A stretch of DNA of 64,000 nucleotides from Anaerolineales bacterium (GTDB lineage Bacteria; Chloroflexota; Anaerolineae; Anaerolineales; UBA11858). A program made the position numbers and the translations under genes. The notes below the pieces were generated by a model that was not told the DNA's origin, searched no databases, and saw only the letters and a program-made list of their open reading frames with translations. The stretch spans positions 16,142 to 80,141 of the forward strand of contig JADHTJ010000004.1 in assembly GCA_016785015.1 (NCBI GenBank), given 5' to 3'. The first letter of the stretch is position 1; each line of letters opens with the position of its first letter. Of this stretch, positions 14,856 to 40,220 are shown piece by piece.

Positions 14856-14902
14856 GATACTATTTTAGAACGAAATCCACGAAGAACACTAAGATTATTT
14901 TT

Positions 14903-15012
14903 GGTTCTATGGGAATTGCCGTGAGAGACCTCGCATTTGGGGGTATGGGGCGTGCTCTGCACGCTCCCTACCCCCAAATGTGGCCCCTTACCACGGCGAT
15001 TTCTAGAGACCC
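14903..15012. repeat. palindromic intergenic repeat, family A copy 2 (inverted flanks relative to copy 1), between wzm and wzt
   Basis: ggttctatgggaattgccgtgagagacctcgcatttgggggtatggggcgtgctctgcacgctccctacccccaaatgtggccccttaccacggcgatttctagagaccc. ORF 14852..15061 is only its translation. Confidence 0.85.
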
Positions 15013-15044
15013 TTATTTTTGTGTTCCTTCGTGAACTTCGTGGT

Positions 15045-15872
15045 TTACAGACGATACGCATATTCGCTAGATTTTGACGTAAAAACTAAACCGCCGATTA
15101 AGAAAGTTCCTAAGGCAAACGCCGTGGCTGGAAGCCAGATATCCCATCCAGGGATAGATCCTGACAACAGGGGTTCCCGAAACGCTTCCACGAAGTAATA
15201 AATTGGATTGATCCGAAACAACCAATGCCATTGCTGGGGGACAATCTCTAAGGGGTAAATTATGGGCGTAGCATACAACCAGATGGTCAGGAGAACATTG
15301 TAAACAGGCAGCATGTCAGCAAAATAGACAGTTGCCGTTGAGAGAAGCAAACCCAAACCCAGTGAAAAAAATGACAGCAGAATTATCACCACAACCCAGG
15401 ATAATATTGCAAGTCTCAAAGGGTTCCCTAACACCAACGCGATCAATAACAACGGCAGCAATGAGAGGATGAAATTAACTAAACCTGTTCCGATTGCCGC
15501 CACGGCAAAGACTGATTTTGGCACATAGATGCGTTTGATCAATTCGCCACTCCAAAGCATCTCCCCCATCGCTCCGCTTGTCGTCGTTGAGAAAAAGATC
15601 CACACCAACTGGCCGCTGAGAACATAAATTGGAAAGTTTTCAATTTGAATGCGGAAGAGCTGCGAGAAAACCACTGTAAGCACAATCATGGTTAATAAGG
15701 GATTGAGCATCGTCCACATCACGCCAAGCATCGAACGTTTATAGCGCGTCTTGATCGCCCGGGCGACAAACTGTACCACCAAACCACGGTACGCTTTCAG
15801 CGCCTGGAATTCTTCCACAAAGGGATGACCAGCACTGGATGAGTCATAAAATGTCATTGAAAATTTCTTCAT
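15045..15872 (-). CDS. wzm: ABC-2 type polysaccharide exporter permease (Wzm/TagG-like)
   Basis: 275 aa with 6 TM segments. The N-terminal block ARAIKTRYKRSMLGVMWTMLNPLLTMIVLTVVFS is the ABC-2 membrane-domain signature. It lies adjacent to the Wzt-like ATPase. Confidence 0.85.
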   Translation of the reverse strand: MKKFSMTFYDSSSAGHPFVEEFQALKAYRGLVVQFVARAIKTRYKRSMLGVMWTMLNPLLTMIVLTVVFSQLFRIQIENFPIYVLSGQLVWIFFSTTTSGAMGEMLWSGELIKRIYVPKSVFAVAAIGTGLVNFILSLLPLLLIALVLGNPLRLAILSWVVVIILLSFFSLGLGLLLSTATVYFADMLPVYNVLLTIWLYATPIIYPLEIVPQQWHWLFRINPIYYFVEAFREPLLSGSIPGWDIWLPATAFALGTFLIGGLVFTSKSSEYAYRL

Positions 15873-15885
15873 CTGGAATATCTTC

Positions 15886-38251: not shown

Positions 38252-38261
38252 TCTCTAATTC

Positions 38262-39986
38262 CTACTGGATATAGCCTTGCTCTTTAAGATAATTGACAAT
38301 ATCGCGAGCATTCTCTTCCGGCGTCGTATCAACCGTATTGAGAACAATCTCGGCATTAACCGGCGCCTCATAGGGGTCATCGATGCCAGTGAACCCTTTG
38401 ATCTCACCGCGGCGGGCTTTGGCATAGAGGCCCTTGATGTCGCGAGCCTCACAAACCTCAAGTGGTGTATTGACAAAGATTTCTACAAAGCGATCATCAC
38501 CAGACATCTTGCGAGCTTCATTACGAGTAGCTAAATAGGGGCTAATTGCTGCACAAATCACTGTACCATTGTGACGAGCGATCTCACCAGCGACAAAGCC
38601 AATGCGCAGAATATTGGTGTCACGATCTTCTTTGCTGAAACCCAAGCCTTTCGAAAGATGCGTACGAACAACATCGCCATCCAACACGGTCGCCTGGCGG
38701 CCGTGTTCCATGAGCATAGGGATCAAGGCGCTTGCAATGGTAGATTTACCACAACCACTAAGACCAGTGAACCAAAGACATAAACCGCGTTTGAAATTTG
38801 GGGGATGAACTTCTGCAAGAATTTCAGCAGTTTCTTTGCGAGTGAACCATTCAGGCAGCAGTTTGCCCTTAGATAGGTAATCTTCGCGAACTTCTGTACC
38901 GGAAATCGTGTTGACTTTAGAGCCTTCAGGAACCTGATCTACTGGGCGATATTCTTTTTCGTCAGGAAGGTAGACCATCCATTGGAAGGGCACCATTTCT
39001 ACACCAACTTCATCTTCATACTGCCTGACCATTTCCTGCGCTTCATAGGGTCCATAGAATGGTTTACCAGCACTATCAACCCCAGGTCCAGCGTGATCAC
39101 GACCAACGATGAAATGGTTTGCACCATAGTTGCGTCGGATGATGGCGTGCCAAAGTGCTTCTCTGGGTCCTGCCATACGCATGGCCAAGGGAAGCAAACT
39201 AAGAACCGTGCTCTTCTCGTCATAATAATTCGCGGTTAAGGCCTTATAAACCCGCACACGGGTGAAATGATCAACATCTCCTGGTTTGGTCATGCCAACA
39301 ACCGGGTGGATCAACAAACTGCCTCCAACTTCATTGGCAGCCAGCTTAGTAAGTTCTTCGTGCACACGGTGCATGGGATTTCGCGTCTGGAAAGCAACTA
39401 CATTTAAATTACCCATTTCAGAGAGCAGGGAGCGTGTCTCTGCTGGCGTACGACGGATGTCCTGAAAATCATAATACTTGGGCGGGTTGACGACTTTCAA
39501 TTCGCCAGAAATACACAGGTCACCCCAGCGCTCCATTTCTGAAACCAGGGGGTGGCGGTGGTCGGTGCTCCCAAGCACTAGGCGTGCTTCCCGAAGGGGG
39601 TCCCAGGTAAAGACTTCGTTGATACGCATCACGGCGATAAGATAGTTGCGCGAGTCCCGCAGGGCAATCCACTCCGAACGGGTGGGCAAATCTTCCTTTT
39701 TGATTGTCAGCGTTATGGGAATGGGAAACAATGTGCCATCCGCTAGGCGCATCTCGGTAAGCACACGTTGGTAATCATCCTTGCCCATGAAACGGTCCAG
39801 AGGAGAATAACCACCCACCGAAAGTAGTTCGAGATCATGCAAAGCTCGATCCGATAATTGAATATCTGAATAATGATTGGCTTGCTCAACAATTGCTTCG
39901 CGTTCAGATCCCGAAACAATAAGATTTTTCAGTTCCCCTCCGTAGGGAGAAATCAATACATTTTCATTGGTTTTTGGCTTACTCAT
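38262..39986 (-). CDS. sat: bifunctional sulfate adenylyltransferase (ATP sulfurylase) / adenylylsulfate (APS) kinase; PAPS synthesis
   Basis: 574 aa. ATP-sulfurylase motifs are [14 protein letters not shown] and [12 protein letters not shown]. The C-terminal APS-kinase domain has the P-loop [15 protein letters not shown] and [22 protein letters not shown]. Confidence 0.9.
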
Positions 39987-40005
39987 TTATATTTTCCTTA
40001 CTTAT

Positions 40006-40102
40006 TGATGTTACGCAACCTAAAGAAAAATATCCCTAAAAATAGGGGGGCGAAGTCCCCCCCCTATTTTTAGGACTTTCCCGCTACGTGTGCGTAACAT
40101 GA
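40006..40102. repeat. palindromic intergenic element, family C-like copy 2 (same terminal clamp, different interior)
   Basis: Termini are tgatgttacgca(40006-17) ... tgcgtaacat(40091-100). The interior is a 16-bp hairpin, cctaaaaatagggggg cgaagt(cc)cccccctatttttagg. Confidence 0.7.
40021..40074 (-). terminator. candidate intrinsic terminator downstream of the GerMN lipoprotein gene (embedded in repeat C2)
   Basis: On the minus strand the 16-bp hairpin (40035-40074) is followed by atatttttcttt. A weaker hairpin plus T-run lies at 40127-40153 (cgccg gctttgtggt cggcg ttttcgtt). Confidence 0.45.
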
Positions 40103-40220
40103 GTTACTTAGTCTCAAATTGTTACAACGAAAACGCCGACCACAAAGCCGGCGGCCCAAAATCATATCATGCTTTGAGAAAAATTGCTTGTGAAATTTCC
40201 TTCAAAATAGGCGGCTTTTG

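Follow-up and report, generated by a model that had tools for sequence, protein, structure and literature searches.

Palindromes in the long gaps of a glycan biosynthesis cluster

The stretch analysed here, a 64-kb window from contig JADHTJ010000004.1 of an Anaerolineales bacterium, is occupied almost entirely by a glycan/polysaccharide biosynthesis cluster on the minus strand, and the long intergenic gaps of this cluster hold the palindromic repeats with which we are concerned. The cluster encodes many glycosyltransferases of the GT2, GT4 and PMT_2 types and several sulfotransferases, and it also holds genes for a NeuB-family nonulosonic-acid synthase, for two CMP-sugar cytidylyltransferases, for an ABC-2 exporter pair and for a sulfate-activation fusion (Table 1). 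Its nearest protein relatives are metagenome-assembled genomes (MAGs) labelled Anaerolineae or Anaerolineales. Between 14 kb and 40 kb, the open reading frame (ORF) map leaves five long gaps, and all the remaining gaps are of 89 nt or less. The TTG start of the 540-aa gene bounding the gap at 34335 is backed by a 540-aa orthologue in L013, the syntenic cluster of a related MAG. No tRNA or tmRNA was found in the window.

An earlier note on this DNA had described long nested palindromes in these five gaps and at 5061-5169, and the folding analysis agrees with it. Compared to dinucleotide shuffles, the five gaps (folded as the sense strand, i.e. the minus strand) and the A1 region gave z-scores from -5.1 to -10.6 (Table 1), and none of the 200 shuffles folded equally well for any of the six regions. 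In a 200-nt sliding fold scan of the whole 64 kb, the six element regions were all within the 14 most stable window clusters. The note had also had each gap filled by one palindromic element and had sorted the elements into three families of two copies each. Palindromes are indeed present in every gap, but the gaps are composites rather than single elements, and the sorting holds fully for the A pair, which is 91% identical, whereas B1 and B2 have 54 nt and their ends in common and C1 and C2 their ends only.

Table 1. Positions of the long gaps (ORF map), palindromic elements, adjoining hairpins and named genes in the window
Feature	Positions	Strand	Length	Details
Gap, wzm/wzt junction	14856-15044		189 nt	fold z-score -10.6
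Gap, MptE/PMT_2 junction	27410-27620		211 nt	fold z-score -6.4
Gap, NeuB/capsule-synthesis junction	34335-34540		206 nt	fold z-score -5.1
Gap, SDR/CMP-transferase junction	37203-37429		227 nt	fold z-score -6.8
Gap, sat/cysC leader	39987-40220		234 nt	fold z-score -5.8
A1	5061-5169	+	109 nt	MITE, hairpin over its whole length; fold z-score of the region -7.6
A2	14903-15012	minus	110 nt	inside the wzm-wzt gap
B1 repeated unit	27436-27620	+		core 27468-27592 (TGTCATTCTGAAC...GCTCAGAGTGACA)
GGATCC hairpin	27424-27449			separate, adjoins B1
B2 repeated unit	34345-34523	+		core 34376-34492 (TGTCATTCTGAGC...GCTCAGGATGACA)
C1	37254-37367			C-type ends TGATGTTACGCA...TGCGTAACATCA
Heptad-periodic hairpin (CAGTnnn arrays) around C1	arrays 37221-37245 and 37393-37426	minus
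C2, C-type MITE	40006-40103			duplication TTACTTAT / TTACTTAG at 39998-40005 and 40104-40111
Terminator-like hairpin	40134-40153	minus		CGCCGGC...GTCGGCG, then TTTTCGTTGT; adjoins C2, not part of the mobile elements
Sat/CysC sulfate-activation fusion	38262-39986	minus
Wzm, ABC-2 exporter pair	15045-15872	minus
Wzt, ABC-2 exporter pair	14094-14855	minus

The elements have no coding capacity, as had been claimed: the metagenome gene caller placed no gene across them, and a protein search with the translated B2 ORF gave no homologue. No family of the Rfam 15 covariance models was assigned to any element, either at the gathering score or at E up to 1, the sole match at E up to 1 being an irrelevant sub-threshold one outside the elements (24152-24394).

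Dispersal, target-site duplications and empty junctions

We then examined the distribution of the elements. BLASTN revealed no further copies of any family in the window (two copies per family on the 68-kb source contig). Copies beyond the window were found in related Anaerolineales genomes and in other metagenomes. A 20-mer of family A matched six contigs of the Anaerolineales MAG GCA_964419495.1 and, in a second Anaerolineae MAG, one contig. The family A loci were 8-kb stretches fetched on account of family A alone, and they also contained C2-type copies (at 2388-2491 in L006 and at 4819-4922 in L011) and, in L012, B copies at 219-375 and at 4788-4863, of which the latter has the outer arms of B2. 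A 22-mer specific to the B1/B2 arm was present on three contigs of another metagenome assembly, in near full-length B1-type copies. All 13 external copies examined are intergenic, as are the six copies of the window, and they often lie between co-directional genes. The elements are small, within the size expected of a prokaryotic MITE (below some 300-500 bp): 109-110 nt in family A, 91-114 nt for the C-type copies and 117-125 nt for the B core, or about 180 nt for the B units with outer arms.

The flanks of the copies were examined for target-site duplications, with element boundaries taken from the multiple alignment at fixed offsets. At random positions of the window, with the boundaries free to slide by 3 nt, an 8/8 match arose in 0.06% of cases and a match of at least 7/8 in 1.7%. 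Perfect 8-bp AT-rich direct repeats, differing from site to site, flank seven of the nine family A copies, and the remaining two match at 7/8. In the window, these repeats are ATCAAAAA for A1 and AAAAATAA for A2, and in the external loci they are AAAATAAG (L006), GTAAATTT (L008), ATAAATTC (L009), TTTTTTAG (L010) and ATCAAAAA (L011). The C2-type copies have duplications of 7-8 bp, with all five scoring at least 7/8 (8/8 once and 7/8 four times).

The same junctions were compared in relatives. In L013, where NeuB is 95% identical at the amino acid level and the DNA about 80% identical, the junction of B1 (MptE/PMT_2) measures 6 nt instead of 211 nt and that of B2 (NeuB/capsule-synthesis) 26 nt instead of 206 nt. 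The SDR/CMP-transferase junction of C1 is reduced from 227 nt to 87 nt, which comprise the heptad hairpin only, and window positions 37246-37401 have no counterpart there. The C2 site is likewise empty in L013, with the adjoining terminator-like hairpin almost identical to that of the window. BLAST blocks between the window and the L013 cluster break exactly at the elements. The gene order in L013 is that of the window, and hardly any long gaps interrupt its cluster. The whole 189-nt gap around A2, outer palindrome included, is absent from relatives with 88-90% identity in Wzm: there, wzm and wzt either share 4 nt (ATGA) or have 11 nt between them. Relatives with empty junctions are L013, L018 and L019-21, and other palindromes are found at other junctions, at L015 4209-4408 (A-like) and L017 14374-14541 (B-like). 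Since the sites are empty in the relatives, the insertions would be later than the split from these species.

Toxin-antitoxin-like cassettes were also observed in cluster gaps of the relatives (L015 2717-3379 and 11372-12059; L017 14542-15244 and 17163-17871). They are of the MJ0235/TumE, NTP_transf_2/HEPN and PIN/PhdYeFM types, and one of them lies at the junction of C1. The spacers of the cluster seem to serve small mobile modules as general landing sites.

Composition of the families

Family A copies end in terminal inverted repeats, in which GGGTCTCWAGGAATCGCCGTG pairs with CACGGNAATTCCCWWAGAACC, and their core holds GTAG...CTAC around a GC-rich stem. A1 and A2 are aligned over 110 nt in opposite orientations. 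The duplication of A1, ATCAAAAA, occupies 5053-5060 and 5170-5177. This copy stands between divergent genes, with a promoter-like site (5000-5027) upstream and the ytxH start just downstream. A2 is flanked by TTATTTTT on the plus strand (AAAAATAA on the minus strand) at 14895-14902 and 15013-15020, and is located in the A-rich centre of an outer palindrome of CACGAAG-type short repeats, whose arms lie at about 14874-14893 and 15027-15046. The AAAAATAA(G) centre of such ACGAA-repeat palindromes is the target of two different A subfamilies, one in the window and the other in L006, which points to a target preference with independent nested insertion rather than to the spread of a composite element. 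ACGAA-repeat palindromes lacking an A insertion were too few to define a family. Double changes were seen in three of the 44 pairs of the family A hairpin, a count that is uninformative with regard to covariation because the copies were chosen by an exact 20-mer. Viral contigs scanned for family A, with a 17-mer and with a degenerate end pattern, gave chance matches only (L025 and L044), and BLASTN of A1 against plasmids gave no match.

Two side observations concern this family. The apical loop (5112-5122 in A1, 14953-14963 in A2, and the aligned copies of L006-L012) is inverted between copies, occurring as GCTCTGC or GCAGAGC and as GCTCCGC or GCGGAGC, which resembles the inversion of palindrome centres through recombination or through replication across a hairpin. 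In addition, the ends of short-read Logan unitigs of the same strain (L040-L043) fall within A2's conserved arm, about 73 nt beyond the stop codon of wzm, so these palindromic repeats fragment de Bruijn assemblies of this lineage.

Family B has a 13-nt inverted repeat at the ends of its core and family-specific outer arms around it. The outer arms of B1 (CGGAAAGT.../...ACTTTCCG, at 27448-27478 and 27582-27612) recur on the three contigs detected with the 22-mer (CCGGAAAGT.../...ACTTTCCG), and thus belong to a repeated unit about 180 nt in length and are not copy-specific. Those of B2 (TTAACCTGATGTGCAAGT.../...ACTCGCACATGGCGTTA) are common to a copy in L012. B1 and B2 have in common the 13-nt ends and the 54-nt left arm, with 80% identity (40 nt at 87.5% by BLASTN), whereas their interiors and outer arms are different. 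The core (TGTCATYCTGAGC...GCTCAGRATGACA) was counted in 43 non-redundant copies in the window and the external loci examined, mostly IMG/VR contigs; as many as seven copies share a 14-kb stretch, and the outer arms around the core are of several unrelated sets. It belongs to a widespread and apparently unnamed superfamily. A literature search with strings of the core sequence found unrelated primer sequences only, and B1 had no BLASTN match among plasmids. A strand bias of the core relative to the flanking genes was suggestive at first, fell to 3 versus 1 after de-duplication and with a strict context, and was dropped.

In B2, the outermost 8-10 nt (TTAACCTGAT / ATGGCGTTA) are swapped between left and right when the window copy (34345-34354 and 34515-34523) is compared with that of L012 (about 4758-4772 and 4893-4903). 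The inner arms and the core have the same orientation in both. The swap represents a further level of nesting or an inversion. The contig 3300031555_011079 of IMG/VR (L032), classed as viral, has seven B-core elements in about 12 kb (711-12729), an unusually high density; they are all in one orientation, with common outer ends (TAAATGATCGTTT.../...AAACGATCATTTA) and possibly a TA target. Downstream of B1, the PMT_2 gene of the window has a TTG start, and the first 18 or so residues of its product are wholly unlike those of the orthologue (window 27330-27409, L013 18613-18666). Judging from this comparison, the insertion of B1 may have replaced the original start region of the gene.

In family C, the terminal inverted repeats pair TGATGTTACGCA with TGCGTAACATSA. 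The common part of C1 and C2 is limited to these ends (21 nt, 95%), and further C-type copies in L022 and L026 have the same ends and other interiors. The interior of C1 (37266-37355) reuses the B-type words CTGAGCGGAG, CCTGAGCGGAG, CTCCGCTCAGAAT, GTCGAAGG and TTCTTCGAC in a changed order, which suggests that modules are shuffled between families. C1 is enclosed by the heptad hairpin, whose arms are inverted CAGTnnn / nnnACTG arrays within window segments 37203-37253 and 37368-37429. At the SDR/CMP-transferase junction, three lineages have retained this hairpin, with drifting sequence: that of the window, L013 (9143-9229) and L015 (3380-3452). Further heptad arrays, which resemble STRR repeats, are present at 598-643 and 59392-59430.

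The interior of C2 contains a 17-bp hairpin on the sense strand (40075-40034, minus) followed by a T-rich tail (ATATTTTTCT), and is terminator-like by consensus match. No intrinsic-terminator-like match, i.e. a hairpin with a U-tract, was obtained for A1, A2, B1, B2 or C1, so that C2 is the only element to look terminator-like. The separate hairpin at 40153-40134 fits the consensus as well, but such a match does not prove function. In the sat/cysC leader, C2 lies downstream of a promoter-like site (TTCACA-17-CATGAT, 40166-40194) and of the terminator-like hairpin at 40134-40153, which is conserved upstream of sat/cysC in L013, L016 and L017. As it adds a terminator-like hairpin to this leader, C2 is the strongest candidate for an incidental effect on expression.

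The non-coding block that precedes sat/cysC (40127-40194, minus) is more conserved than the flanking genes. It comprises, in this order, the promoter-like site, AAAGCATGATATGATTTTGGG, the CGCCGGC..GTCGGCG hairpin and TTTTCGTTGT, and has counterparts at about 6480-6560 in L013, at 1359-1432 in L016 and at about 6215-6265 in L017. The L013 block is almost identical save for the loop, even though L013 lacks the 326-aa gene found upstream in the window. The block could be either the terminator of this gene or a leader/attenuator of the sulfate-activation gene. The 326-aa gene itself (40221-41201, minus) has no Pfam match and is absent from the syntenic cluster of L013 and present in L016 and L017. 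Next to it, a 535-aa gene (41213-42820, plus), also without a Pfam match, is conserved in L013 and, alone among the genes within the cluster, lies on the plus strand.

Origin of the elements and comparison with known systems

Taken together, these results make it very probable that the long gaps hold several families of small non-coding palindromic repeats of the MITE type (miniature transposable elements with inverted repeats), belonging to uncultured Anaerolineales and tolerated in the spacers, rather than a conserved operon design. For family A and the C2-type elements, insertion would proceed through a cut-and-paste or DDE-type mechanism, with duplication of an AT-rich target of 8 bp (7-8 bp for the C-type). 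Family B is a mosaic, in which family-specific outer inverted repeats surround the widespread hairpin of the core, TGTCATYCTGAGC...GCTCAGRATGACA. We take ISL3, IS6, IS256 and IS1595, which duplicate 8 bp and have ends starting with GG, to be candidate mobilising families only. Since the cluster is tightly packed and co-directional, only short AT-rich spacers and the loops of pre-existing hairpins would tolerate insertion, and insertions would pile up there, some of them nested, turning spacers of 6-90 nt into nested palindromes of 190-230 nt. Transcripts of the cluster would carry the elements as long hairpins, and mRNA processing or read-through may be affected incidentally; this is plausible in view of what is described for ERIC and Correia elements (PMC10969869).

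Several points weigh against this interpretation. An autonomous partner, sought as widely spaced inverted A or C ends, was not found in the roughly 400 kb examined, and C1 has no detectable target-site duplication (5/8). In family B, no duplication could be read, since the flanking sequences, at filled as well as empty sites, were too few or too far diverged. The copies of the source genome were counted on the 68-kb contig only. The empty sites come from other species (about 80% nucleotide identity), and show non-conservation without dating the insertions. In every assembly of the strain to which the window belongs, the elements are present.

The earlier note had proposed that the palindromes act as RNA stabilisers, processing sites or insulators setting the stoichiometry of sub-operons. 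As functional operon RNA elements, they would tune sub-operon expression as intercistronic stabilisers, RNase processing sites, partial terminators or insulators, and their location between co-directional genes, from which they would be transcribed as very stable hairpins, is consistent with such a role, as are the intrinsic-terminator-like interior of C2 on the sense strand and the tendency of relatives to have some palindrome somewhere in the cluster. ERIC and Correia MITEs, moreover, change the fate of mRNAs via RNase E or RNase III (PMC10969869). However, in the syntenic clusters of relatives the five elements are all missing from the corresponding junctions, where the genes are 6, 26 or 11 nt apart or overlap. 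The positions and families of the elements vary by lineage, copies of one family are found in unrelated settings (divergent promoter regions among them), A1 and A2 have opposite orientations, and a U-tract is present in C2 alone. As neither presence nor position is conserved, a designed role in sub-operon stoichiometry is unsupported, and we regard the functional reading as unlikely. A weaker form of it, in which selection acts for some intercistronic structure and mobile palindromes are recruited and replaced repeatedly, would account for the finding that each relative examined has at least one long palindrome in its cluster, at differing junctions, and for the heptad hairpin kept in three lineages. 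The near absence of long gaps from L013 speaks against it, and the toxin-antitoxin cassettes taken up by the gaps of relatives argue for permissive sites with no need for a hairpin; this makes it quite improbable that selection acts for a hairpin of whatever kind.

Mobilisation of REP/REPIN/BIME-type elements by a RAYT (HUH Y1) transposase acting on single-stranded hairpins would fit the palindromic, intergenic and mosaic or nested character of the elements, the GTAG...CTAC core of family A, the inversion of its loop between copies (TCT/AGA and TCC/GGA) and the lack of a clear target-site duplication in family B. Target-site duplications are not expected of HUH/RAYT mobilisation, whereas A and C2 have duplications of 8 bp. 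The termini (GGGTCT, TGATGT and TGTCAT) have no GTAG or CGTC head, and the units measure 90-190 nt compared to the 20-40 bp given for REP in PMC3733652. A RAYT origin is therefore very improbable, and of the earlier label "REP/BIME/MITE-like" it is the MITE part that is retained, on the basis of dispersal, lack of coding capacity, the duplications of A and C2 and the empty sites. An assembly artefact, with repeats mis-joined or palindromic contig ends collapsed, might be suspected from the Logan unitigs ending inside the A2 arm. ENA metagenome contig ERZ24794647 NODE_2753 and contigs of other samples, however, have exactly the sequence of the window, and gap-spanning Logan contigs agree with these independent assemblies; the elements are thus not an artefact of assembly, and, with the clean target-site duplications, this leaves the suspicion with practically no probability. 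A "Russian-doll" system, in which mobile modules of palindromic form are targeted to the apex of other palindromes and swap modules, is drawn from the A subfamilies at AAAAATAA centres, the B core in unrelated arms and the B-type words of C1, and has a small but appreciable chance of being correct. In that case, the TGTCATYCTGAGC...GCTCAGRATGACA core, as a conserved structured module, would have its own function and would not be only a decaying MITE, for example as a recognition site for a transposase or a host protein, or with a role at the RNA level.

MITE-type insertions of this kind resemble several known systems. ERIC (or IRU) is a MITE-like imperfect palindrome of 127 bp which, at the 3' ends of genes, alters transcript levels via RNase E (PMC10969869). 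Family A is near to it in size (about 110 nt) and is also a whole-length hairpin, and both are non-coding, intergenic in transcribed regions and found in either orientation. In contrast, no sequence similarity to ERIC was seen, the host belongs to the Chloroflexota, and family A makes 8-bp AT-rich duplications. The pneumococcal BOX, RUP and SPRITE repeats, which comprise several small families, accumulate in shared intergenic regions, with insertions of one repeat into another (PMC10969869). The gaps of the window have similar nested and mosaic structures, and SPRITE has a rho-independent terminator-like hairpin, as does C2, whereas BOX is modular (boxA, boxB, boxC) and not a nested palindrome, and the sequences and hosts are unrelated. 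RUP duplicates TA. The Correia elements of Neisseria have specific 26-bp ends and a TA target, unlike the Anaerolineales elements with their 8-bp duplication. Correia (or NEMIS) elements are co-transcribed MITEs with terminal inverted repeats, whose hairpins are cut by RNase III and which can supply promoters or IHF sites (PMC10969869); the likeness lies in the terminal inverted repeats and, presumably, in co-transcription.

REP sequences, as described in PMC3733652, are palindromic, extragenic and high-copy, with proposed roles including termination and mRNA stabilisation. The elements of the window share with REP, BIME and REPIN their palindromic and extragenic nature and mosaic arrangements, and differ from them in size, in their headless ends and in the duplications of A and C2, REP units being RAYT-tied with a GTAG or CGTC head. 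In cyanobacteria, small dispersed repeats, Nezha MITEs and heptameric STRR form palindromes nested in one another and intergenic tandem repeats of heptamers, as in the window. The heptad repeats had prompted us to consider a cyanobacterial origin, which was dropped: the cyanobacterial repeat HIP1 is not enriched in the window, and the protein relatives and repeat matches are those of Anaerolineales, which belong to a different phylum.

In summary, the elements are ordinary genome clutter and not a conserved control system, and they reveal no new regulatory principle. Their identification explains why the sole long gaps in a tightly packed 25-kb glycan operon are hairpins, and marks the small ORFs across them as spurious; it also bears on assembly, as the elements break short-read unitigs. 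No description of MITEs in Chloroflexi/Anaerolineae was found in the review PMC10969869 or in the literature searched. For the Anaerolineales, which are abundant and largely uncultured, three or more families of the MITE type are now on record, with clear target duplications of 8 bp. The same operon with and without hairpins of 110-230 nt at defined junctions constitutes a natural experiment on the effect of MITEs on a polycistronic mRNA.

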